Source of the DNA: a virus
Taxonomy: Duplodnaviria > Caudoviricetes
Strand: one strand, 5' to 3'
DNA length: 62,814 nucleotides
IMG/VR virus record: IMGVR_UViG_3300042543_000362
Location: 1-62,814 of that record
Shown here: positions 792 to 34,183 of the stretch, one piece after another
How the letters are laid out: each line of letters opens with the position of its first letter
Numbering within the stretch: position 1 is the stretch's first letter
The notes under the pieces: generated by a model
Seen by the model: the letters and a program-made list of their open reading frames with translations, nothing else
Told to the model about the DNA's origin: nothing
Databases searched by the model: none
Position numbers and translations under genes: made by a program

Positions 792-1075
792 AACCCGACA
801 TGACCCGCCAAGCACCCGCGTGGCTAGGAGGCGTGACGGCCGGCCTGGCGATCGTCGGCGGCGTTGGTTACATCATTGATTGCCGCGTGGCGGGCGAGGA
901 ATTGGACAGCTGCTGGATGACCGGCCACAGCATGATCGCCCGCGCCTCTGACCTGGCCCTGGGCGCGGCTGCGGGCGGGGTGGTCGGGTACTGGACCAAG
1001 AACCCCGCCCTGCACCGCCGCGAAGACAACGCCCCACCCGGCGCCCGGCGCCTCCCCACTGACCCCGACGCATGA
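788..1075 (+). CDS. two-TM membrane protein, holin candidate
   Basis: Two hydrophobic stretches; ATGA-coupled; upstream of the endolysin. Confidence 0.5.
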   Translation: MKPDMTRQAPAWLGGVTAGLAIVGGVGYIIDCRVAGEELDSCWMTGHSMIARASDLALGAAAGGVVGYWTKNPALHRREDNAPPGARRLPTDPDA

Positions 1076-1227
1076 GCAAGATCCACCCTACCGCCGATCT
1101 CTTCCTCGGCCTGTTGGCCTGGCTGTTCACCACAGGGTTCACCGAGCTGGTGGTGAAGCCCGCCTGGCGCCGGCTCTACCGCCGCGCTGATCAATCCCTT
1201 TCCGACCGCTTGCCTGATCTGAAATGA
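1072..1227 (+). CDS. small membrane protein (51 aa), lysis accessory
   Basis: MSKIHPTADLFLGLLAWLFTTGFTELVVKPAWRRLY...; ATGA overlaps on both sides. Confidence 0.5.
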   Translation: MSKIHPTADLFLGLLAWLFTTGFTELVVKPAWRRLYRRADQSLSDRLPDLK

Positions 1228-2504
1228 CTTTCGCCACCTTTCGCGCCGCTTTTGAGCACGCCATCCGCCAAGGCCATTTGACGCCGCATCAGCTGGCCGC
1301 ATTGGAAGCGCACTGGGAACGGCAGACTGATAAGCAAAAGCAGGAGTTTACTGAAGACTGGCGGGCACAGGGGAGCCCTGCAGCGCCGGCTCCGGTGGCT
1401 GAGCTGGTGACGATGGCTCAGGCCACGGCGGTGTTCACCAGGTCGCCCAGCGCGTCGCAGCTGGCGGACCTGAACTCCTGCCTGCGGAGATTCGCGATCA
1501 ACACCCCGGCGAGGATCCGGCACTTCCTGGCCCAGGTCGGTCATGAATCCGGCGGCCTGCGGTGGATGCTGGAGCTCGCCAGCGGCGACGCCTACGAAGG
1601 CCGGCAGGACCTGGGCAACACCCGCACCGGTGACGGTCGCCGGTTCAAGGGCGCCGGGGCGATCCAGCTCACCGGCAGATACAACTACCAGCGCTTCGCC
1701 GACTACATCAAAGACCCCGACGTGATGGACGGGGCGGCCTACGTGTCGATCCGGTATCCGTTCACCTCCGCCGGATTCTGGTGGCACCTGAACGCGATCA
1801 ATGCGTTCGTGGATCAGGGCGCCAGCTGCCGGCAGGTGTCGGCGAAGGTCAACGGCCGCGACCCCGCCAACGGCTTGGCGGATCGGGAGGCCTACTTCGC
1901 CCGGGCAGTGGCGGCGATCTCGCTGGCTGGGCGGCCGGCGGTGCAGCTGCAGCAGCAGGGCGGCCACGGCAACCCGCTGCAGGTGCCCTGGTACGCGCAG
2001 ATGGACAGCGCCGACCGGGCCCAGGCGGCGCGGATGTGTTTCAGCTCCAGCTGCGCCATGCTGCTGCAGTACCTCAAGCCCGAGACCCTCGCCGGCCCGA
2101 ACGGCGACGATCAGTATCTGAAGCGGGTCCAGCAGTACGGCGACACCACCGACCCCACCGCGCAGATTCGGGCGCTGTCGAGCTTCGGGATCCGGGCGAA
2201 GTTCACCAAGGTGGCCGGGTTCGCCGACCTGGAGCAGCAGATCAACTGCGGCGTGCCCGTGCCGGTCGGGTTCCTGCATCGAGGCCCGGTGTCGGCACCC
2301 TCCGGCGGCGGCCATTGGCTAATCGTGGTGGGCTACACGAGGGATCACCTAATCGTGCATGATCCGTTCGGTGAGGCTGATCTGGTGAGCGGCGCCACCC
2401 TGGGCGGCGTGGCGCGGTTTATGAAGTACAGCCGGCGAAACTTCGGCCCACGGTGGATGGTGGAAGGCGCGAACACGGGATGGGCAGTCATCGCTGAGCG
2501 CTGA
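1224..2504 (+). CDS. endolysin: GH19-type glycosidase plus C39-like peptidase
   Basis: FLAQVGHESGGL and FKGAGAIQLTGRYNY (GH19); MCFSSSCAM, GGGHWLIVVGY and VHDPFG (papain-fold C/H/D). Confidence 0.85.
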   Translation: MTFATFRAAFEHAIRQGHLTPHQLAALEAHWERQTDKQKQEFTEDWRAQGSPAAPAPVAELVTMAQATAVFTRSPSASQLADLNSCLRRFAINTPARIRHFLAQVGHESGGLRWMLELASGDAYEGRQDLGNTRTGDGRRFKGAGAIQLTGRYNYQRFADYIKDPDVMDGAAYVSIRYPFTSAGFWWHLNAINAFVDQGASCRQVSAKVNGRDPANGLADREAYFARAVAAISLAGRPAVQLQQQGGHGNPLQVPWYAQMDSADRAQAARMCFSSSCAMLLQYLKPETLAGPNGDDQYLKRVQQYGDTTDPTAQIRALSSFGIRAKFTKVAGFADLEQQINCGVPVPVGFLHRGPVSAPSGGGHWLIVVGYTRDHLIVHDPFGEADLVSGATLGGVARFMKYSRRNFGPRWMVEGANTGWAVIAER

Positions 2505-2848
2505 TGCCCTTCGATCACCTGATCGACGAAACCCAACTCCAGCCCAAGAAAATCACCAAGGCCCGATTCAGGCGGCGAATCTTCGCCGAGTGGAACCACG
2601 CCTGCGCGTACTGCACCGACCCGGCGGACACCCTTGACCACGTACTGGCCCGCTCCTGTGGTGGGCTGACGGTGGCTAAAAACCTGGTGCCGGCCTGCCG
2701 CCGGTGCAACGGGGCGAAATCCTCGACGGACTGGCGGGAGTGGTTCGAGGCCCAAGACTGGCACTGCCAAGAGCGGGAGGACAGAATTGATGGATGGCTA
2801 GGAGGTGGTGTGCACACTGAAGGCATAGCCCAGGCTCCCCCGTCGTGA
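2504..2848 (+). CDS. HNH endonuclease
   Basis: CAYC...TLDHVLARSCGG...NLVPACRRCNGAK. Confidence 0.9.
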   Translation: MPFDHLIDETQLQPKKITKARFRRRIFAEWNHACAYCTDPADTLDHVLARSCGGLTVAKNLVPACRRCNGAKSSTDWREWFEAQDWHCQEREDRIDGWLGGGVHTEGIAQAPPS

Positions 2849-2863
2849 TAGCTATCTGAAGCA

Positions 2864-4015
2864 ATGACGACCGAACGCACCTATCAATGTCGCCGGTCAA
2901 AGGCTTGCAAGGCGTGGATTCCTGAATCGTCGGTTGAGTGGGTTGAACAGTCGAGCCAGCGGCGCCCTTTATGCAAGCCAGGGTACTGTCCGAGCGGCAA
3001 GCGAAACGACACGGCAGAGGAGCTGCTGGAGCTGCAGCTGGAGGCGCGCCGGCTGCGGGCAGAGACGCGGGATGCCAAGGCCAGCGCAGAGAGGGCCCTG
3101 GCCAAATTGGAGGCGGTGCAGGATGCGCTGACCGTAGCGCTTGAGATCAGGGACATTTTTGATCAGGGCGTTATCACCCCGCCAGAGGATCCGCAGAAGG
3201 ATGAGGCGGTGCCGATCCTGCTGCTGTCTGATCTGCACTGCGGGCAGATCGTCAAACCGTCATCCGTCAACGGGCTCAATGAGTTCAACCCCGAGATATT
3301 CGACGACCGGCTAGATGCTGTGTTCCGCAATGCGCTGAAGGTGATCAACGGGCAGCGGAGCACAGCAACAATCCGCGAGGCGGTGGTGTGGCTAGGTGGC
3401 GACCTGATCGAAGGGGAGCTGCACGGTGATGCGGTGCAGAATCAGACGCTGACCACGACTCAGCAGATCGTCAGGTGTGAACGGGCGATCGTGCGGGGGC
3501 TGGACTACCTGCTGCAGCATTCCGACCTGGAGAGGATCCTGATCCCCTGCAACGTGGGCAACCACGGGCGAAACACCAAGAAGCAGCAGAGCAACGCAAC
3601 AGAGAACAGCTACGAACACCTGGCGTACTGCTCAATGCGCCGGCACTACCGGGATGAGTCGCGGCTGGAGTGGTTCATCGCTGATGCTGACTGCCTCTAC
3701 CTGGATGTGTACGGCAAGCGATTGCGGTTCATGCACGGTGATCGGGTGCGTTATATAGGTGGCGCTGCGGGCCCAATGTGGAACGTGGACAAATATGTAA
3801 AGGATCTTGACCAAACGCTAGCGGCACACCATACTTTCCATGGCCATTTTCATACGCTTAGCTTCGGATCAAGGGCCACAGGTAATGGCAGCCTGCCAGG
3901 ATGCGCACCCTACGGCCTGCAAAGCGGCTACCGGATCGAGCGCCCACAGCAGGGGATGCGATTCCTGCACAGCCACAAGGGATTTGCCGGATCGTTCCCG
4001 ATCTTCACCGAGTGA
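2864..4015 (+). CDS. calcineurin-like metallophosphoesterase with N-terminal Cys/coiled-coil region
   Basis: SDLH, GGDLIEG, GNHGR, MHGD and GHFH motifs. Confidence 0.85.
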   Translation: MTTERTYQCRRSKACKAWIPESSVEWVEQSSQRRPLCKPGYCPSGKRNDTAEELLELQLEARRLRAETRDAKASAERALAKLEAVQDALTVALEIRDIFDQGVITPPEDPQKDEAVPILLLSDLHCGQIVKPSSVNGLNEFNPEIFDDRLDAVFRNALKVINGQRSTATIREAVVWLGGDLIEGELHGDAVQNQTLTTTQQIVRCERAIVRGLDYLLQHSDLERILIPCNVGNHGRNTKKQQSNATENSYEHLAYCSMRRHYRDESRLEWFIADADCLYLDVYGKRLRFMHGDRVRYIGGAAGPMWNVDKYVKDLDQTLAAHHTFHGHFHTLSFGSRATGNGSLPGCAPYGLQSGYRIERPQQGMRFLHSHKGFAGSFPIFTE

Positions 4016-4019
4016 CCGC

Positions 4020-4208
4020 CTAGGGCGTCGAGATCCCCCGGCTGGCGAGCATCATTCTGAGCACCGCGATAGCCCGCTCCCCTGAGTAGCACCTGACCCG
4101 CTTGCCCATCCCCACCACGACCCAACAGACGCCGCCGTTGGTATCGGTTCCTACTGTGATATGGGGCCGATCGTCGCCAGACTGGGGGATCACTGCAGCG
4201 GCTGTCAT
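4020..4208 (-). CDS. small hypothetical protein (start uncertain)
   Basis: Fills the gap between genes; residue pattern resembles ORF 12890..13102. Confidence 0.35.
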   Translation of the reverse strand: MTAAAVIPQSGDDRPHITVGTDTNGGVCWVVVGMGKRVRCYSGERAIAVLRMMLASRGISTP

Positions 4209-4596
4209 GCTCGGCCTGAATCTTTGCCTCAGTCTGTCGCGTCAGGCCATGATGGCTGATCACCGGCAGAGGGCCGCCAGGCTCAGCCGGGATGAGCTGT
4301 CGCAGTGGTGCGACGAGCTGATCCAGCGCTGCCACCAGCAAGAGCACCTGATTCTGGAGCTGCAGCGGTGCGCTGCCAACCTGATGGTGCAGAACGCCCT
4401 GGACGGCGCCCCGTCGTTCGGCGCTGTGAGCGATGAGCACCGGCAGATGGCCCGCGAGGTGCTGGGGGCAGGCCCTGAGCGCCCTGAGGGCTGGGTGCGG
4501 CGTGTGATGCGCCCTCACCTGCTGCGGGCCGCCAGGCTGGGCCGCGATGAGCTGGCGCTCAAAGGTGCGCAGCCGCTGGGGAGAGCCGACGGGTGA
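4207..4596 (+). CDS. helical protein, possible NblA-like
   Basis: LNLCLSLSRQ...LSRDELSQWCDELIQR...QEHLILEL resembles the two-helix NblA pattern; by eye only. Confidence 0.35.
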   Translation: MLGLNLCLSLSRQAMMADHRQRAARLSRDELSQWCDELIQRCHQQEHLILELQRCAANLMVQNALDGAPSFGAVSDEHRQMAREVLGAGPERPEGWVRRVMRPHLLRAARLGRDELALKGAQPLGRADG

Positions 4597-4715
4597 GCAT
4601 CACCAGTGGGCGCGGGAGTTGGGGAGGCGGTTGCCGTAGCGGTGACGTGTCGGCGGGTCAGCTGTTTCGCTGACGGGTTTGGTGGACGTGTTAAGAGGGT
4701 TGGGGTGGTGAGTGG

Positions 4716-4882
4716 GTGACGGATTGTGAACTGACCCCGTAGGTGGTTGCCAGTGTGTGCCCCACGGGTTACAGTGATGGCATCGGGAGGGAAACCTCTT
4801 CCGGGGCTCCGGCCCCTGGCCCACGGGGAGCCTGCCAGATCGTCGGCATTCCCCGCACCCACTCCACCGCCACTCGCCAGCT
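4716..4882 (+). promoter_or_regulatory. cassette promoter A1 with structured leader
   Basis: GTGACGGATTGTGAAC starts 54 bp before the -10-like TACAGT (4770); also GTGCCCCACG box, hairpins and CCACTCGCCAGCTATG; matches the copy at 6428. Confidence 0.7.
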
Positions 4883-5053
4883 ATGACCACTATTCGCTAC
4901 ATCCGAGCCATTGGCACCGTGATCAGTCGCCGCCTTTGGGCAACGTGCAAGTTCGGCAGCCTGGAAACCCTTAAAGGCATTTGGGCCGATTACACATCCG
5001 GCAAAATTGATTCTGCTGAGTATCACCAGCTGGCCGCCGATTTACTCGCCTAA
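4883..5053 (+). CDS. hypothetical cargo protein (56 aa)
   Basis: MTTIRYIRAIGTVISRRLW...; first ATG after promoter A1. Confidence 0.65.
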   Translation: MTTIRYIRAIGTVISRRLWATCKFGSLETLKGIWADYTSGKIDSAEYHQLAADLLA

Positions 5054-5057
5054 CCCA

Positions 5058-5084
5058 CCCCACGGCCCGCCGGAGCCCATCCGG
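5058..5084 (+). repeat. 27-bp direct repeat with hairpin, copy 1
   Basis: CCCCACGGCCCGCCGGAGCCCATCCGG; 26/27 identical to 5366..5392. Confidence 0.9.
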
Positions 5085-5110
5085 TAACCCATCCCACTAA
5101 ATTCAAACCA

Positions 5111-5365
5111 ATGGACACTCCCAGAAACATGCAATCCGAAACTGACACATGCTTGTGGACATTAGAAAATAACCTAGCGACCTACAAACATTGGCACGGT
5201 AAGACTGTCCGTTACGACCGACCCAGCCTGGAAGTGGCCATCCAAAACGTAAAAAACAATCAAAACGCCTACGCAACTTATGAAGCATATCAACGCGATT
5301 TGTTTCATTTTGAGCGCGGCCTAGGCCTTTTTAAGGCCGCCGAAGCTGCGCATCAAGCCGCCTGA
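5111..5365 (+). CDS. hypothetical cargo protein
   Basis: AT-richer ORF between the two 27-bp repeats. Confidence 0.65.
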   Translation: MDTPRNMQSETDTCLWTLENNLATYKHWHGKTVRYDRPSLEVAIQNVKNNQNAYATYEAYQRDLFHFERGLGLFKAAEAAHQAA

Positions 5366-5392
5366 CCCCACGGCCCGCCGGAGCCTATCCGG
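5366..5392 (+). repeat. 27-bp direct repeat with hairpin, copy 2
   Basis: CCCCACGGCCCGCCGGAGCCTATCCGG immediately after the stop codon. Confidence 0.9.
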
Positions 5393-5417
5393 CAGTCATT
5401 CACTCGCCACCACAACC

Positions 5418-5633
5418 ATGACCATCCCCACCCGCGCCGAGCTCCGCGCAGCGTTTGCTGATGCGATGGAGCGTGCCGGCTATGGCCTGATCCTGCCATC
5501 GCATGCCCTCGCCATCCGCGCCGCCGTGGAGGTGGTGCTGGGCGATCCGTCCCGTGACGCCACCCGCCCCACCACGGCCCGCCACCGTGCCCAGCTCCTG
5601 GCGCTGGCCGATGCGATCGAGAGTGGGGACTGA
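5418..5633 (+). CDS. hypothetical protein
   Basis: ORF after a CACTCGCC leader; GC-rich third positions. Confidence 0.6.
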   Translation: MTIPTRAELRAAFADAMERAGYGLILPSHALAIRAAVEVVLGDPSRDATRPTTARHRAQLLALADAIESGD

Positions 5634-5665
5634 GCATCACCACCCATCCACTCGCTATCACTACC

Positions 5666-5896
5666 ATGAACGTCCAGCAACTAATTGAAGAACTGCAGAA
5701 GCATCCGCCTGAAATGCGGGTGATTGTCGATGGCTACGAAGGCGGCTACAGCGATTGCAAGCCGCCAGAATCCACCCGGATTCGGCTGAATGTGCATGAA
5801 GAAGATAGGTGGTACTACGGGCGACACGATGACGCAAGCTATCCGCTCGGAGACCAAGCCGGCGCCATCGAAACCGCATTGCGGCTGCCTCGCTAA
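5666..5896 (+). CDS. 'MNVQQ' family protein, paralog A (76 aa)
   Basis: 22 of the first 30 aa identical to 31074..31304; same length. Confidence 0.8.
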   Translation: MNVQQLIEELQKHPPEMRVIVDGYEGGYSDCKPPESTRIRLNVHEEDRWYYGRHDDASYPLGDQAGAIETALRLPR

Positions 5897-6126
5897 TGCC
5901 CCTAACCCCCGCCGACAAAACCGCCCGCCATCGCCTCCGCCTGGCGGGCGACATCCCCCAGCTGCCCACCTGCCCCCAGTGCGGCCGCACCGTGATCAGC
6001 GACCGCACGGCGCCCCTGTGCTCCCGGTGCTGGAAACGATCGCCAGCTGCCAGGGAGTGGAACCGGGAGAGGGTGGTGAGGCAGCGCCAGAAATCACGCA
6101 CGCCATCATCAGGAGATCAGGGATGA
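5896..6126 (+). CDS. small basic C4 zinc-finger protein A, putative regulator
   Basis: CPQC...LCSRCW flanked by Arg-rich helices; paralog of 31304..31528. Confidence 0.7.
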   Translation: MPLTPADKTARHRLRLAGDIPQLPTCPQCGRTVISDRTAPLCSRCWKRSPAAREWNRERVVRQRQKSRTPSSGDQG

Positions 6127-6431
6127 GCAGCCACACCGCATTCAGAGTGATCACACCTCAGCGCCACACGCCTGGCTGGTTCCGCCGCTGGCTGCTGGCT
6201 CCACCTCCTGGCCCCACCATCGGCCGCAAGCGCCGCGCACGCAGGGCCAGGGGGCGGCGGAACGAGGCTAGGCAGGCACTGGGCCATGGCCACTGGTCCC
6301 GCGTGCCGCTCGACCCCAGCCGCCCGAGTCTGCTGGAGATGGGTGCCGCAAGGGGACACGTGATTGCTAAAACAAGCATTTTCAGCGTCAACCACTCACT
6401 GGGCGAGCCGTGGGAGGGCGCCGATTCGTGA
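6123..6431 (+). CDS. hypothetical Arg-rich protein
   Basis: ATGA-coupled to the zinc-finger gene; its stop overlaps promoter A2. Confidence 0.45.
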   Translation: MSSHTAFRVITPQRHTPGWFRRWLLAPPPGPTIGRKRRARRARGRRNEARQALGHGHWSRVPLDPSRPSLLEMGAARGHVIAKTSIFSVNHSLGEPWEGADS

Positions 6432-6529
6432 CGATCTGTAAACCGTCCGCCCTGGTGGTCGCCAGGGTGTGCCCCACGGGTTACAGTATGGGCATCGGAG
6501 GGGAACACCTCCACCGCCACTCGCCAGCC
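6428..6529 (+). promoter_or_regulatory. cassette promoter A2
   Basis: GTGACGATCTGTAAAC 54 bp before TACAGT (6482); shares GTGTGCCCCACGGGTTACAGT with A1; GGAGG/CCTCC hairpin. Confidence 0.7.
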
Positions 6530-6787
6530 ATGACCGCTCTGATCCCCGCCGCCAACTTCACCGCCCGCAAGCTGGCTGATTTCCGCGTTGATGTTCAGCC
6601 GGGCCAGTACATGCTCTGCAATGGCTGGGGTATCTGGGACGCCGCCGCCGCCGCATGGGTCGCCGGCCCGCGCGATGCTGAGGGCGTGACGGTGCTGGCG
6701 CCTTGGGCCTTCAAGACTCGCAAGGTGGCTCAGCTGGCCGCACGTGATGGCCTCATCTTCAGCCCCGGCTATCAAACCGTGGCCTGA
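6530..6787 (+). CDS. hypothetical cargo protein
   Basis: First ATG after promoter A2. Confidence 0.65.
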   Translation: MTALIPAANFTARKLADFRVDVQPGQYMLCNGWGIWDAAAAAWVAGPRDAEGVTVLAPWAFKTRKVAQLAARDGLIFSPGYQTVA

Positions 6788-6851
6788 TCCCACCCCACGG
6801 CCCCAGCGCCGGGCTTCCTATCACCCACCTCACCGCTTCGCCAGCGCCGCC

Positions 6852-7130
6852 ATGAACAACACCCAGCTCAAAAACCAGTTATTCCCCGAGCACCTCACTG
6901 GTGATCGCCCTGTTTTTACATGGCAAAAGACCGCCAACATTGGCGACGATCATGTGATCTGGTGGCTTTATTACGGATACGCAGATGGAGGGGGCACGCT
7001 TTGCTGCAGATTCTTTCATCCGCGCTCTGCGCCTCTTACTGGAAAAAGAAGAAAGGTCGTAGCGTTTCACTTGCGCGAACTAAAAGCGCAAGTTCGCAGG
7101 GATTGGCGCGCTCGCTTTCCCGCTTATTGA
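6852..7130 (+). CDS. hypothetical cargo protein
   Basis: AT-richer ORF after a CCCCACGGCCC element; converges on the sigma gene. Confidence 0.55.
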   Translation: MNNTQLKNQLFPEHLTGDRPVFTWQKTANIGDDHVIWWLYYGYADGGGTLCCRFFHPRSAPLTGKRRKVVAFHLRELKAQVRRDWRARFPAY

Positions 7131-8223
7131 CTGGCTGACCCCCCCCAGCAGCAGCGACCCGCAGCCGATCGCCGAGACAGACCCAGTTCCTGGGGAATCC
7201 CCCAACCCTGCGCAGCGCCGGGGACGCGGGCTTCACCCTTTCAACCGGCACCAGCACCAGCTGATCAGGCCGCTCGCGGCGCCGCCTGCTCTTGTCCTTT
7301 GGCTCCGGTTTCTTCCGCTCCACCGCCACCAGCACCAGCTGCACCGACTGCGACGCCAGCGACGCCTGCAGCCGTGCAAGCCGCACCTCCAAGGCCCGTG
7401 TGCTCAGGCCTTCCTGCTGGGCCAGCTCGCTCCGGGGGATCTCCACCCCGTCAAGGCCCCAGGCCAGGGACAACAACCTGCGATCCGGCGGCGCCAACCT
7501 GGCGATCAGCCCCCGCAGCTGCTCCGCCTGGCGCCAGCGTTCGCGCTGTTCCTCTTCATCCTCTGGCGTGCGGTCGTAGGCGGCGCACAGGCTGCCCAGC
7601 TCTAGCCCGTCATCGGTCACGACCTGATCCAGCGAGGCCACCGGCCGGCCGTTCTCAATCACCTGCTCCAGCACCCGCAGCGACACGCCCAGCTCTGCGG
7701 CGATCTCCGCCTGCGTCGGCGTGCGGCTCAGTTCCCGTTCCAGCCGTCGGGTGATGGCGTCCAGCTTCGCTAGATGCTGGCAGTGGCTGCCGGGGATGGC
7801 GATGGCGCGGCCGTGCTGATCGACCCAGCGGTTGATGGCCTGCCGTATCCACCAATATGCGTAGGTGGAGAACCGGTAGCCCTTCGCCGGATCAAACCGC
7901 TCAGCGGCGGTGATCAGGCCCATGTTCCCGGCTTGGGTCAGATCTTCGCGGTCGAATGACCGGGTGAGCCTGTGGCAGCGCTTGGAGATGTACGCCACCA
8001 CCAGCCGCAGATTCGCCGATACGAACCGGTCCCGGGCCCGCTGGCCGCGGCGCCGGATCCCTGGTGGGCACGGGTCGGGGTGCTGCTGCCAGCGCTGGAT
8101 GGCCGTGCCCAGTTCAATCTCTTCGGCTGGGGAGAGCAGGGGAATGCGCCCGATCGAGTCGAGCCACCAGGACTGGTTGCTGCTGGCCGGCACGGATCGA
8201 ATGTGACGATTTGCCCCCATCAT
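7036..8223 (-). CDS. sigma-70 family RNA polymerase sigma factor (cyanobacterial RpoD/group-2-like); start may be slightly downstream
   Basis: IGRIPLLSPAEEIELG, ANLRLVV, DLTQAGNMGL and ERFDPAKGYRFSTYAYWWIRQAI. Confidence 0.92.
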   Translation of the reverse strand: MMGANRHIRSVPASSNQSWWLDSIGRIPLLSPAEEIELGTAIQRWQQHPDPCPPGIRRRGQRARDRFVSANLRLVVAYISKRCHRLTRSFDREDLTQAGNMGLITAAERFDPAKGYRFSTYAYWWIRQAINRWVDQHGRAIAIPGSHCQHLAKLDAITRRLERELSRTPTQAEIAAELGVSLRVLEQVIENGRPVASLDQVVTDDGLELGSLCAAYDRTPEDEEEQRERWRQAEQLRGLIARLAPPDRRLLSLAWGLDGVEIPRSELAQQEGLSTRALEVRLARLQASLASQSVQLVLVAVERKKPEPKDKSRRRRERPDQLVLVPVERVKPASPALRRVGGFPRNWVCLGDRLRVAAAGGGQPVNKRESERANPCELALLVRASETLRPFFFFQ

Positions 8224-8255
8224 AGGGTGCGAAAGGGGAACCGATCCGGTATGGT
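8219..8255. promoter_or_regulatory. divergent promoter pair with GGGTGC/GGAACC box
   Basis: TATGAT on the minus strand (8219-8224); GGGTGCGAAAGGGGAACCGATCCGGTATGGT on the plus strand. Confidence 0.65.
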
Positions 8256-8283
8256 GTGGGGGCGTTCACCACTCGCTACGACC

Positions 8284-8781
8284 ATGGCACAGGAATGGAT
8301 CACAGACCGACCGCCGACAGGGGCGGATGGAGATCACATCGGGTCGGTGCATGTGAAGATGCACCCTCGCGGCGGCAGCTTCTGCCGTATTTACTGGAGC
8401 TACGTCGCTGCCGGCGCCCCGTGGCAGCACACCAACCACTGGCAGCCACCTGCTGAGCCCGCCCCCACCGAGCCCGACCGCATCGCCGCGCTGGAGCAGC
8501 GGGTGGCGGAGTTGGAAGGTGTCGCTGAGCTGCCGGGTGGCCTCCCCGACCTGGAGCAGCGGGTGGCGGAGTTGGAGGGCGGTGAAGATGCGGTTGGACT
8601 GCTCTATTCGCATCTCCAATCTCGGCTAGCGAAGCTAGAAGGAGCCCAAGACGATGGCTCTGCGCCCAAGTGGACGCTCAACCGCATCGCCGACCTAGAG
8701 GATCAGCTGGCGGCGCTGGAAGCCACCACGCGCCAGCTGCTGCACGGGTCCCGGTTCCGCCTTGTTGTGGAGCCTCGCTAA
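8284..8781 (+). CDS. hypothetical protein with coiled-coil repeats
   Basis: LEQRVAELEG twice; a 26-bp exact repeat at 8491 and 8551. Confidence 0.65.
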   Translation: MAQEWITDRPPTGADGDHIGSVHVKMHPRGGSFCRIYWSYVAAGAPWQHTNHWQPPAEPAPTEPDRIAALEQRVAELEGVAELPGGLPDLEQRVAELEGGEDAVGLLYSHLQSRLAKLEGAQDDGSAPKWTLNRIADLEDQLAALEATTRQLLHGSRFRLVVEPR

Positions 8782-30630: not shown

Positions 30631-30732
30631 GTGACAATCCATCAACCGGCCACCCATGGCCACCCCAGGCCGTAAGGGACGCGCTAAGGTATGGGGACAG
30701 GAGCCGAGGCGCTCCGCCACTCACTGCCAGCC
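30631..30732 (+). promoter_or_regulatory. cassette promoter B1
   Basis: GTGACAATCCATCAAC 54 bp before TAAGGT (30685); CCGTAAGGGACGCGCTAAGGTATG shared with B2. Confidence 0.7.
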
Positions 30733-31005
30733 ATGACCCGCAATCAGATCATCAAGGCCCTCAGCAAATCTGGGTTTGACATGGAAGCTGTTGCAGAATG
30801 CAATCACAGCGAAATCTTTATCGGCTACATGACAGATGGAGTGGTAGCGCTCAAGGATTACGACCGGACAGCGCAAGCTGTTGACTCCGCCGCCAAAATT
30901 CTTGGATGGGGTGGGAGTTCTTGCGCTTGGGGAGGCTTCCGTCTCTACAAGGGCTTTCAAGCAGATCCAATGGAAGGAACGATCTACGGTCGCGAGCATT
31001 ATTGA
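30733..31005 (+). CDS. hypothetical cargo protein
   Basis: First gene after B1; AT-richer. Confidence 0.65.
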   Translation: MTRNQIIKALSKSGFDMEAVAECNHSEIFIGYMTDGVVALKDYDRTAQAVDSAAKILGWGGSSCAWGGFRLYKGFQADPMEGTIYGREHY

Positions 31006-31073
31006 TCCACCGCCTAACCCACCCCACCCCGCCAGGGGCTTACCCTGGCGATCACTCCACTGCATTAACAGCT

Positions 31074-31304
31074 ATGAACGTTCAGCAACTGATTAAAGAA
31101 CTCCAGAAGTATCCGCCTGATATGCGGGTAATTCTGCAGGGGTATGAAAGCGGTTTTGATGATCTCAGCAGGCTAGAGCTTATGGAAATTGTTGTTAATT
31201 ACAATGACGACGGCCATAGTTGGTGGAATGGCAAACATGCACCCGCAAGCCAAATGCTGCCACCAACGGCGAAAGGCCATGAGCAAGCCCTGCTGATCTC
31301 CTAA
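31074..31304 (+). CDS. 'MNVQQ' family protein, paralog B (76 aa)
   Basis: Paralog of 5666..5896. Confidence 0.8.
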   Translation: MNVQQLIKELQKYPPDMRVILQGYESGFDDLSRLELMEIVVNYNDDGHSWWNGKHAPASQMLPPTAKGHEQALLIS

Positions 31305-31528
31305 TGCCTGACCCCCGCAACGCCGAACACCAGCGCCGCTGGCGAGAACGTCAAGCAGGCCGCCTGCCGCCTGTGGAGCGCCCCTGCTGCACTACCTGCG
31401 GCAAGGTCCACCGTGGCGCCCATGGCGCCCTGTGCGCCAGCTGCTGGGAGCGCATCACGCCAGAGGGCAAGGCGGCTCACTCCGAACGGGTCAGGCGCGC
31501 TCAGCGCCGCAAGCGTGACAGATTGTGA
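31304..31528 (+). CDS. small basic C4 zinc-finger protein B, putative regulator
   Basis: CTTC...LCASCW with basic flanks; paralog of 5896..6126. Confidence 0.7.
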   Translation: MPDPRNAEHQRRWRERQAGRLPPVERPCCTTCGKVHRGAHGALCASCWERITPEGKAAHSERVRRAQRRKRDRL

Positions 31529-31616
31529 ACTGGCCGCCCTGATGGTCGCCACACCGTAAGGGACGCGCTAAGGTATGTGCATCGGAGGGACGCCCTCCAC
31601 CACTCGCCAGCCAGCC
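31515..31616 (+). promoter_or_regulatory. cassette promoter B2
   Basis: GTGACAGATTGTGAAC 54 bp before TAAGGT (31569); GGAGGG/CCCTCC hairpin; CCACTCGCCAGC. Confidence 0.7.
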
Positions 31617-31967
31617 ATGACCGCCACCTTCAAGTTTTTCTGGAACGGCATCAAGGTCAACAACGGACCCCTGCAGAAAGCCAGTTTCAGCATCGGCAAC
31701 ACCCTGAACCACCCCCAAGGCACGATCACCATCTACGCCAAGAACTACCGCCGGTTCTCTGCTGAAGTGTGGGAAGCGTTCGACGTCCAGAACGATTCCG
31801 ACAGCATGACCGACTACTTCGAGTCGGACCGGATTCGCGTCCGCCCTGATCACCCCTTCTACGCTCAGGCGCTCAAGGCGGTGCATGCCTCTGATGCCCA
31901 CCACTCCAAGATGCGAGCCAAGCGGGAAGAGCGCTGGGCCCAGCGCCGCCAGCTAGCCGCCGCCTGA
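31617..31967 (+). CDS. hypothetical cargo protein with NDSDSMTDYFE motif
   Basis: First gene after B2. Confidence 0.7.
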   Translation: MTATFKFFWNGIKVNNGPLQKASFSIGNTLNHPQGTITIYAKNYRRFSAEVWEAFDVQNDSDSMTDYFESDRIRVRPDHPFYAQALKAVHASDAHHSKMRAKREERWAQRRQLAAA

Positions 31968-32017
31968 CGGCCATCCCCTACACTGCCCTCGGTGCATGGC
32001 GCATCGAGTGGACCGCG

Positions 32018-32046
32018 ACCCTCGCCCTGGCAGGCGGGGGTTTTTT
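32018..32046 (+). terminator. intrinsic terminator
   Basis: CCCTCGCC/GGCGGGGG stem plus T6. Confidence 0.8.
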
Positions 32047-32084
32047 ATGCCCGCTGGCAGACTGTGCGCAGATGCCCTGCCACC

Positions 32085-33262: not shown

Positions 33263-34183
33263 ATGAGCGAAAGCGTAGCGCGCCACCTGCACGGCGCCGA
33301 AATTGAATCCATCCGCGAGTGGCTTTACTGCGACAATTCTTCGCCAAGTGGATTGCGCTGGCGTAAAAGTTTCGGAAAACTTCGCATTCAAGGGCAGCCC
33401 GCCGGAAGACTTACGCAGGGCTATTTCTGTTTTTCGCTTAATCAGTCTTACTATCGAGCCACTGATTTAATACTGCTACTGAATGGCATCTTCCCAGCAG
33501 ACCCCCGTCAGCGTGCCTGTTTAATTGATGCCGAAGGTCCGGTAAACGACGCACTAAACCTTCAATGGCATATACCGGTTAAAGAAAAAACCAAACAATC
33601 AAGCGTTAAACCTGATTTAGAATCAATAAAAAGGCGCAAAGAAAGGCGTTTTGTTGATAGCGCTTTAAGCGGCAGAATAGCCGTTATAACTGAAGACACA
33701 AGGCTTTTCCGCTTGTGCCCAGGCAATCATTTCTGGATGGGTCAACCCTTGACGCTGTACAAAATGGGCCATGACGGCAAATGGGAATGCCCTGAGTGCA
33801 AGCAGCATGATCAAGAGCTTTACTCTAGGTATTTGCTGGCAAGGAAAGGGTTTCACATTCGTGTTCACAGAAGCAGGCGAAACCTCAAATCCCTACCTTG
33901 GCATGAAGTGCAGCAAAGGTTTGCTCAGTTCGAGCACCGCTGCGCCTATTGCGGCTGTGATGGCAAGATGCAGATTGAGCACGTCGTGCCGATCAGCAAA
34001 GGCGGGTCTCATTCTGTGGGCAGCATCGTGCCAGCGTGCAAGCGCTGCAACGCGAGTAAGCACGCAAAGCCGGCCGAAACCTGGTACCGCTCCCAGCCGT
34101 TCTTCAGCGAGCTGCGCTGGCGGAAGATCTGCCGGGTGCCGGGCTGGCAGCGCTCCAGCGTCGGGCAGCTGGCGCTGCTGTAG
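33263..34183 (+). CDS. HNH endonuclease with extended N-terminus
   Basis: CAYC...IEHVVPISKGG...VPACKRCNASK; directly upstream of terS. Confidence 0.85.
   Translation: MSESVARHLHGAEIESIREWLYCDNSSPSGLRWRKSFGKLRIQGQPAGRLTQGYFCFSLNQSYYRATDLILLLNGIFPADPRQRACLIDAEGPVNDALNLQWHIPVKEKTKQSSVKPDLESIKRRKERRFVDSALSGRIAVITEDTRLFRLCPGNHFWMGQPLTLYKMGHDGKWECPECKQHDQELYSRYLLARKGFHIRVHRSRRNLKSLPWHEVQQRFAQFEHRCAYCGCDGKMQIEHVVPISKGGSHSVGSIVPACKRCNASKHAKPAETWYRSQPFFSELRWRKICRVPGWQRSSVGQLALL

Follow-up and report, generated by a model that had tools for sequence, protein, structure and literature searches.

The genome of a tailed phage of the Caudoviricetes (IMG/VR virus record IMGVR_UViG_3300042543_000362) carries two modules, A (from 4716) and B (from 30631), in each of which the gene for a small zinc-ribbon protein, called ZnF here, lies between two copies of a promoter cassette. 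The window analyzed is the whole record, 62,814 bp in length and rated 100% complete by CheckV. In the window and in related viral contigs, the class of the ZnF protein goes with the sequence of an 18-bp block in the surrounding cassettes; regulator class and the sequence of the putative site diverge together. We give a probability of roughly 0.6 to the reading in which ZnF recognises the 18-bp block and thereby controls, in a sequence-specific way and probably by repression, both its own operon and the one that follows, with the two modules of the genome functioning independently.

A preliminary description, made from the letters of the window, had reported two loci that share one layout, and the gene order, the TAATG junctions and an extra open reading frame (ORF) at 6123-6431 in module A were all found as described. 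Alignment from a GTGAC edge to the start codon gives four copies of a cassette of about 105 bp, beginning at 4716, 6428, 30631 and 31515 (A1, A2, B1 and B2, all on the plus strand). The pattern GT-N5-ACG-N-G-N-TAMRGT has four matches against 0.30 expected, and none of 100 shuffles reaches four. A second pattern, GTGAC-N8-AAC-N-G-N-CC, finds the same four sites only and is weaker, with 6 of 100 shuffles reaching four. An nhmmer profile built from the four copies detected no fifth cassette in the window at E ≤ 1. The core, which consists of the 17-nt spacer and the -10 hexamer of a sigma-70-like promoter, is identical within a module and different between modules (GTGCCCCACGGGTTACAGT twice and GTAAGGGACGCGCTAAGGT twice), again in line with the earlier claim.

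Each cassette proceeds from a conserved upstream element through a weak -35, a 17-nt spacer, a TAnnnT -10, a 5' stem-loop and a C-rich leader to ATG-ACC. In all four copies a TAnnnT hexamer lies 17 nt past a (T)(T/C)GCCA-like hexamer; they are putative promoters. A1 (TTGCCA-17-TACAGT, 9/12) is the sole one of the four to pass a simple 9-of-12 promoter scan, and the remaining three are weaker. Cassette A1 (4716-4882) consists of the upstream element (4716-4746), the -35 TTGCCA (4747-4752), the block (4756-4773) and the overlapping -10 TACAGT (4770-4775); its transcript would start near 4782 and carry a 101-nt leader with a 5' hairpin, ahead of the ATG at 4883. A2 (6428-6529) has the -35 TCGCCA at 6459-6464, the block at 6468-6485 and the -10 at 6482-6487, with a predicted start near 6494, a 5' hairpin, a C-rich leader and the ATG at 6530. 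In module B, B1 (30631-30732) has a poor -35, ACCCCA (30662-30667), the block at 30671-30688 and the -10 TAAGGT at 30685-30690, followed by a 5' hairpin, a leader and the ATG at 30733. B2 (31515-31616) has the -35 TCGCCA at 31546-31551, the block at 31555-31572 and the -10 at 31569-31574, and its 5' hairpin and leader lead to the ATG at 31617. We infer that the four repeats are copies of an early-promoter cassette common to a group of uncultured Synechococcus-type tailed phages.

Related loci were collected by scanning viral contigs, which gave 60 loci for the two ZnF proteins of the window and 5 for the pair of 76-aa MNVQQ proteins encoded just upstream of them. A cassette profile (nhmmer, four copies, E ≤ 1e-3, plus strand) was run on the window and on 50 loci fetched by ZnF or MNVQQ similarity, and 93 cassette copies were found in these 51 sources. 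The order of elements is constant: a first cassette (P1), one to six small ORFs, ZnF, a second cassette (P2) at or over the ZnF stop codon, and more small ORFs. ZnF is the sole gene common to the modules. The next commonest gene family (F2) occurs in 10 loci, and the MNVQQ family (F9), which had been taken for a fixed part of the module, occurs in only 5 related loci and is thus cargo. In 30 of 47 distinct contexts, the start codon of ZnF runs into the stop codon of the gene before it, and both ZnF starts in the window are TAATG-coupled to the upstream gene. Where ZnF stands directly before P2, its last codons (..KRDxL) and its stop belong to the GTGAC..TGTGAAC edge of the cassette; where an ORF is inserted between the two, as in module A, ZnF has a different tail.

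The window contains exactly two ZnF genes, whose products are 38-39% identical, while the two MNVQQ proteins are 47% identical. The conserved ZnF residues listed in the preliminary description were seen in the alignment of both proteins. A twin arrangement of modules is not general: one complete relative carries a single ZnF, and in another there are two, arranged differently. Both genomes served as fresh tests of the pairing of ZnF and block. In the first (G001), exactly two copies of the block flank the one ZnF gene. In the second (G002), a further block type, GTCACG..TGCGCTAGG, is again present in two copies around a ZnF. The latter genome (C1:39205-40766; loci L074 and L076-L078) is a complete, 56-kb one with terminal repeats, and its two ZnF genes lie on opposite strands about 1.1 kb apart; one is MANTS-like and has no recognisable P2 cassette, and the other is the one with the further block type. 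Another contig has three successive cassettes (L064, at 1466, 2222 and 2887), and two ZnF-family ORFs occur within one unit at 946-3138 of a further one (L046), which suggests that modules can be extended in tandem.

For the comparison of regulator and site, all cassette copies were anchored on the -10 and each was assigned to its ZnF. Two of the 93 copies lack an intact ZnF ORF (L006 and L041) and one is cut at a contig end; the other 90 reduce to 65 non-redundant promoters. ZnF class was defined by the 18 residues that follow CxxCW, that is, by the C-terminal helix. Co-variation of regulator clade and adjacent core had been proposed as a test, and across the 65 promoters the class of the C-terminal helix predicts the block almost perfectly. 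The module-specific stretch had been placed in a five-nucleotide core; such a stretch exists, but it extends over 18 bp (columns 41-58 of the alignment, beginning at the fourth spacer position and ending at the fourth position of the -10). The REWNRERV-type helix, which is that of ZnF-A, goes with GTGC(C/A)CCACGGGT in 18 of 18 promoters, and the RAADAERKR type goes with GTCC... in another 18 of 18. The AAHSERV type, which is that of ZnF-B, goes with (G/A)TAAG..CGC and a TAAG(G/C)T -10 (21/21), the FK.(D/E)RVA type with GTAACGGATGCGC (6/6), and one REANRLRM protein with GTAAC(A/T)GGTGCGC (2/2).

The match between class and sequence is confined largely to the block. ZnF class explains 0.65 of the column entropy over the spacer and 0.72 over the -10, and at the most class-specific columns (41, 44-47, 52, 54 and 57-58) it explains 0.75-1.00. 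The invariant positions T43, G53, T55, A56 and T60 frame the block. In the flanks, class explains only 0.23 of the entropy upstream and 0.24 downstream, though these sequences are as variable (mean H about 1.0 and about 0.9). Linkage is controlled for in this comparison, since at P2 the upstream flank separates the block from the ZnF gene. A second comparison concerns the two promoters of one module: P1 and P2 have a mean block identity of 0.93 but a flank identity of 0.53 (28 pairs). Promoters of different classes have block identities of only 0.56-0.58 and flank identities of 0.52-0.54, so the flanks differ as much within a module as between classes.

The part of the protein that goes with the block is the C-terminal helix. 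In a set of 34 distinct ZnF proteins, members that agree in N-terminus and ribbon but not in the C-terminal helix have blocks that differ at positions 3 and 5. Two N-terminal variants, KTARHRLRLAG and KTQRFRLRQAS, are each found with both types of C-terminal helix; the block goes with the helix, even at P1, the promoter beyond the N-terminal end of ZnF. An AlphaFold2 model of the protein (pLDDT 83.8) has a helix at residues 5-17, a C4 ribbon with the spacing CxxC-N12/13-CxxC, and a second helix at 50-67; both helices are rich in arginine and lysine.

The following mechanism is proposed. A cassette pair surrounds one operon that ends in the gene for the 70-80-aa ZnF, and the second cassette, which starts at the ZnF stop, would drive further small genes. 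Relative to the predicted transcription start, the block extends from about -26 to about -9; it takes in most of the spacer together with the two -10 positions that are least constrained, and it would serve as the ZnF binding site. Its left part would be read by the basic C-terminal helix, and its right part by the remainder of the protein. A rising level of ZnF would then switch off ZnF's own operon, by negative autoregulation, and the downstream cargo operon as well. A protein bound at -26 to -9 of a sigma-70 promoter stands in the way of polymerase; ZnF most likely represses, because its site overlaps the place where sigma and RNA polymerase must sit. The two modules of the window, with different ZnF and block classes, would act independently. 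A bolder extension, which we offer tentatively and consider somewhat less likely to be right than wrong, is that the ZnF proteins form a DNA-binding family of a new kind, whose recognition code could be read. The family would comprise at least seven mutually orthogonal, probably monomeric regulators of about 70 aa with asymmetric 18-bp sites, in which a swappable C-terminal helix sets the specificity for the left part of the site; two insulated circuits per phage would be possible, each timing its own exchangeable host-takeover genes.

Several observations weigh against ZnF as a repressor that reads the block. The ZnF classes are nested lineages, so the correlation rests on few independent events, with about 6-8 independent co-changes. 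P2 abuts the 3' end of ZnF, and linkage may contribute to the match there. In three loci (L054, L057 and L058), the P1 block (GTAAGCGGTGCGC) is unlike the P2 block (GTAAGG..CGCGC), with an identity of 0.72-0.78. One ZnF clade, MANTS...RWRRRLAG (L030, L037-L049 and L053), has no P2 cassette after the gene that the cassette profile recognises. The -35 is poor in many class B and C copies and one of the four window copies passes the promoter scan, which fits dependence on an activator. The protein itself has no relative with a DNA-binding fold: Foldseek against the PDB gave no hit at E ≤ 0.001, and the best Z in the wide VIA-align search was 2.8. The best PDB profile matches are all to bL32, an RNA binder, at E values of 0.0066-0.1, which are below significance. 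Finally, the blocks lack significant dyad symmetry, since only 2 of 51 distinct blocks reach 0.03 against shuffles.

The last of these observations leaves a classical dimeric repressor site unsupported. A symmetric operator was considered and dropped, as the best palindromic register pairs only 4-7 of 9 positions, and a TGT-N12-ACA reading of the type A blocks was no better than chance. If ZnF binds the block, it is more likely a monomer with two reading elements, a view that follows from the lack of symmetry in the blocks. A homodimer prediction scored 0.00; it was run without controls and carries no weight either way.

A different reading of the same block is that ZnF binds it but activates transcription, recruiting or re-aiming polymerase at promoters that have no good -35, so that the modules would be positively autoregulated middle-gene units. 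T4 MotA, a phage activator of this kind, acts at -30. The left part of the block, near -26 to -20, is placed where such activators sit; many class B and C cassettes have no recognisable -35 (ACCCCA, GCCTGA, CGCCGG and ACGTGG are examples), only A1 passes the 9-of-12 rule in the window, and the co-variation data fit activation equally well. However, the block enters the -10 hexamer (columns 57-58), which an activator and sigma would have to share. ZnF is also the last gene of the P1 operon, and an obligate activator in that position would need another source of first expression, while class A has a decent TTGCCA -35 at 17-nt spacing. We regard activation as unlikely, though not negligible.

Another explanation, of about the same low standing, is that ZnF does not contact the block at all. 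The block could be intrinsic to the promoter, recognized by polymerase, sigma or some other factor, or could be kept uniform by gene conversion; the match to ZnF would then reflect linkage or descent, and ZnF itself would bind RNA or polymerase. Phage Mu Com is a parallel for RNA binding, and TraR-like proteins are a parallel in size and layout for polymerase binding. The bL32 profile matches, the lowest at E 0.0066, speak for this explanation, as do the labelling of some homologues as L32 by one source, the presence of TraR among the non-significant Foldseek rows (chains at E 1.8 and 5.0 only), the phage's own sigma factor, and the descent of the ZnF classes as lineages with few independent events. 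Nevertheless, flanks that are linked to ZnF as tightly as the block or more so do not co-vary, and gene conversion would homogenise the flanks too, which stay only 53% identical. Two block classes occur in one genome that has one phage sigma gene, and because they share it, a class-specific reader should be encoded in the module, where ZnF is the only common gene. The leader and its hairpin, the obvious RNA target, are common to ZnF classes, and the Pfam family Ribosomal_L32p matches just 1 of 24 ZnF members, at E 0.071, under the cut-off.

ZnF has at least 392 homologues in metagenomes (E ≤ 0.001 among 8000 candidates scored), while a tblastn comparison of ZnF-A and ZnF-B with 50,697 GenBank phage records gave no match. 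Many homologues are labelled 'ribosomal protein L32' in one source, and other labels are 'YacG/DUF329' and 'predicted amidophosphoribosyltransferase'. These labels look like over-calls from generic zinc-ribbon similarity, and the L32 naming would stem from the weak profile matches to bL32. The protein resembles bL32 in having a basic N-terminal segment followed by a CxxC...CxxC ribbon, but it differs in an extra conserved Trp after the second CxxC and in its long basic C-terminal helix, where the differences between classes are found. The Pfam family DZR_2 (PF18912) matches 22 of 24 ZnF members, with a best E of 1.8e-05, and the window proteins score 19.4 and 20.4 bits, below the gathering cut-off of 27; this match appears to be generic ribbon similarity only. 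Neither the DksA/TraR nor the Ogr/Delta family is among the 25 of 29 Pfam families listed for 24 ZnF members at E ≤ 1. In PHROGs, ZnF falls in families of unknown function, and in the Atlas it falls in viral 'hypothetical protein' clusters. Judged by these searches, ZnF belongs to no named family; the missing fold relative does not make its fold a new one.

The genes around the putative regulator turn over. The preliminary description had expected the cargo to vary, and 28 distinct cargo strings were indeed found in 41 P1-to-ZnF modules. The homology between the window and its relatives is a mosaic, in which the backbone, cassettes, junction elements and ZnF match but the ORFs between them do not. 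One cargo family (F3) is found almost unchanged downstream of promoters that belong to three block classes, and in each case the block is that of the local ZnF; the similarity of the F3 copies starts at CCAGCC-ATG-ACC. Since the F3 similarity starts there and the homology is mosaic, cargo is exchanged at the end of the leader and at the junction elements. The duplicated promoters had been proposed to double as recombination points; the crossovers fall at the 3' end of the leader and in the junction elements, not over the whole promoter. By this evidence, small cargo genes are swapped by recombination while the block stays matched to the resident ZnF.

The junction elements form a second repeat family, located between cargo genes and consisting of a stop codon, a CCCACCCCAC-like run, a short G+C hairpin, a C-rich leader and an ATG. 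They are found in the window at 5047-5110, 5357-5417, 6787-6851 and 31008-31073. Allowing one mismatch, CCCACCCCAC occurs 24 times against 8.95 expected, mostly on the plus strand where small ORFs read in that direction and mostly on the minus strand at 14.8-23.4 kb. The leaders of the cassettes also contain hairpins: a stem of at least 5 bp starting within leader nt 1-6 is present in 45 of 50 distinct leaders (shuffles: mean 5.1, maximum 13), and 14 different stems were counted. The hairpin sits after the predicted start and has no T-run. The leader tails are 55% C, and a Shine-Dalgarno-like word occurs in 1 of 45. Stem-loops at the 5' end affect mRNA decay, and the leader hairpin is read as a 5'-end stabiliser. 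The leader is an unlikely class-specific target, because hairpin types are common to different ZnF classes.

At the opposite edge of the cassette, the first 20 nt or so, which span about -66 to -47, have the form GTGAC-N6-TGTGAAC-N-G-N-CC and contain two GTGA words at a distance of 11 nt. This 5' edge (within 4716-4746, 6428-6458, 30631-30661 and 31515-31545) has low column entropy and is kept across all ZnF classes. Its conservation is unexplained by ZnF specificity; it may be the site of a host or phage factor, an UP-like element or a recombination edge of the cassette.

In module A, all on the plus strand, the first cassette is followed by a 56-aa cargo ORF (4883-5053) that has no family match. 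The junction element at 5047-5110 contains a C-rich run, a short hairpin (CCGGA..TCCGG) and a leader, and it is kept in relatives that have other flanking genes. A relatively AT-rich cargo ORF of 84 aa (5111-5365), again with no family match, leads into the second copy of the junction element (5357-5417). The 71-aa ORF at 5418-5633 belongs to family F2, which in its 10 loci usually stands immediately upstream of ZnF. MNVQQ gene A (5666-5896) precedes the gene for ZnF-A (5896-6126), a 76-aa protein with a basic N-terminal helix, a CxxC-N12-CxxCW ribbon and a basic C-terminal helix. The extra ORF (102 aa, 6123-6431) lies between ZnF-A and A2, and its stop falls within the GTGAC edge of A2; in relatives this position holds an unrelated ORF (family F5) or none. 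Downstream cargo A (6530-7130) comprises ORFs of 85 aa (6530-6787) and 92 aa (6852-7130) and reaches the 3' end of a convergent sigma-factor ORF, with which the second of these overlaps by about 95 nt.

Module B, also on the plus strand, begins behind its first cassette with a 90-aa cargo ORF of family F4 (30733-31005), which stands behind P1 or P2 in relatives. Its junction element (31008-31073) has a C-rich run, the hairpin GCCAGGG..CCCTGGC and a leader, and it is followed by MNVQQ gene B (31074-31304) and the gene for the 74-aa ZnF-B (31304-31528). The C-terminal helix of ZnF-B is of the AAHSERVRRAQ type, and the last codons and the stop lie inside B2. Downstream of B2 is the 116-aa F3 cargo ORF (31617-31967), and a hairpin with a T-run that resembles an intrinsic terminator (32017-32050) marks the end of the module.

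In the PHROGs annotation, module A is preceded by an endolysin and an exonuclease. Modules A and B are separated by genes that include RecT, a helicase and a primase-helicase, and a minor-tail-type protein, an HNH endonuclease and structural genes come after module B. The sigma-factor gene (7036-8223, minus strand) is about 75% identical in DNA to its counterpart in Synechococcus siphophage S-LBS1. Its product, of the sigma-70 family, is matched by Pfam in regions 1.2, 2 and 3; there is no clear match to region 4, and the protein has a long proline/arginine-rich C-terminal tail. The HNH endonuclease ORF (33263-34183, plus strand; Pfam HNH, E 8.9e-09) lies directly upstream of ORFs of 202 and 641 aa that precede the structural genes. 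No tRNA genes or Rfam families were found in the window, and no integrase was seen among the ORFs scanned.

A scan of 185,579 species genomes gave a single match, to a 4-kb contig from the bin of an uncultured Synechococcus; the contig may be phage DNA binned with its host. This contig (L081, 2224-3600) contains two tandem ZnF-like ORFs and no cassette match. In three metatranscriptome runs from the same sample, at most 3% of sampled words were present. Within 2500-8500, the contigs of these runs match in four short pieces, at 2859-3112 and 4053-4436, with none over module A and no joints; such contigs cannot show transcript starts.

Small phage repressors that autoregulate and bind between -35 and -10 are a familiar theme, with P22 Arc at Pant and Cro and cI at the lambdoid operators as examples. 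They resemble the proposed ZnF system in that a small protein encoded in the controlled operon acts at a site overlapping the core promoter, and in that heteroimmune variants occur among relatives. However, they are ribbon-helix-helix or helix-turn-helix dimers on symmetric sites, whereas ZnF is a zinc ribbon between two basic helices and its block has no significant dyad. A phage zinc protein of similar size is found in the late activators P2 Ogr, P4 Delta and 186 B; Ogr sites lie upstream. These activators, like ZnF, are phage-encoded C4 zinc proteins of about 70 aa and act on phage promoters (putatively so for ZnF), and type A blocks can be read as TGT-N12-ACA. The cysteine spacing of the late activators is CX2C-X22-CX4C (PMC3931495), while that of ZnF is CxxC-N12/13-CxxC, with no match to the family among the Pfam families listed, and the block overlaps the -10.

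Two other systems are closer. In Cluster A mycobacteriophages, the immunity repressor and the stoperator/operator motif diverge together into distinct specificities, and the C-terminus of the repressor as well as its DNA-binding domain influences specificity (Mavrich and Hatfull 2019, PMC6550527). A mycobacteriophage repressor has also been described that reads an asymmetric site as a monomer via two parts of the protein (PMC9283540). Cluster A phages are temperate; their repressors have a helix-turn-helix and also stop elongation, and a genome can contain as many as about 30 of the sites. The present system differs in having a 70-80-aa zinc ribbon, two promoter-overlapping sites per gene and two specificities in one genome.

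The second is the promoter-early stem-loop (PeSL) cassette of T4-type phages, which combines a sigma-70-like early promoter with a stem-loop; PeSLs stand beside variable ORFan genes and bring about their shuffling (Arbiol et al. 2010, PMC2839356; Comeau et al. 2014, PMC4122927). The cassettes are alike in being short repeated units of promoter (predicted here) and stem-loop that end at the next start codon, beside small variable genes, and that serve as points of modular exchange. As described, PeSLs number about 50, have the stem-loop in or upstream of the promoter as a terminator, and carry a Shine-Dalgarno sequence at the 3' end of the cassette. The phage here is siphovirus-like and of high G+C, with two cassettes per regulator (four in the genome, two in G001), the stem-loop at the transcript start and no Shine-Dalgarno sequence in the leader; moreover, the cassette pair is tied to a dedicated ZnF gene that matches the 18-bp block, for which those parts of the PeSL description (PMC2839356, PMC4122927) give no counterpart. 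That the cassettes are plain PeSLs, with the C-run and G-run of the spacer as the stem-loop and ZnF as a passenger, is very improbable: PeSL stem-loops are often poly-G/poly-C and lie between -35 and -10 or over the -10, type A blocks do contain CCC..GGG, and PeSLs flank variable ORFans and mediate their shuffling much as cargo turnover is high here, but possible stems in the block are only 3-4 bp and absent from types B and C, ZnF is the one constant gene and always beside P2 with a block that matches class by class, and there are two cassettes per ZnF rather than dozens per genome.

The system described here is a phage module of putative regulator and operator in which the regulator comes from a zinc-ribbon family not described before and the whole is set within exchange cassettes; its closest parallels are the PeSLs and the co-diverging repressors and operators. 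The preliminary description knew of no named system with this layout. ZnF is in no named family; the idea of a recombination cassette was already embodied in PeSLs, and regulator-site co-divergence is known from phage immunity. A literature search found no description of the ZnF family or of the cassette. To our knowledge, early-gene control is essentially undescribed in cyanophages outside the T4 and T7 types.

If ZnF does read the block as a regulator, these phages would encode a new family of very small sequence-specific regulators whose specificity classes can be read straight from metagenomes, and the genome studied here would show that two regulator-site pairs, insulated from each other, occur naturally in a single virus. 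Orthogonal repressor/promoter pairs from Synechococcus phages, based on a protein of 70 aa, would also be useful parts for cyanobacterial engineering. The modules provide a nucleotide-resolution view of how accessory genes can be exchanged without disturbing their control, in which the cargo moves and the putative operator stays matched.

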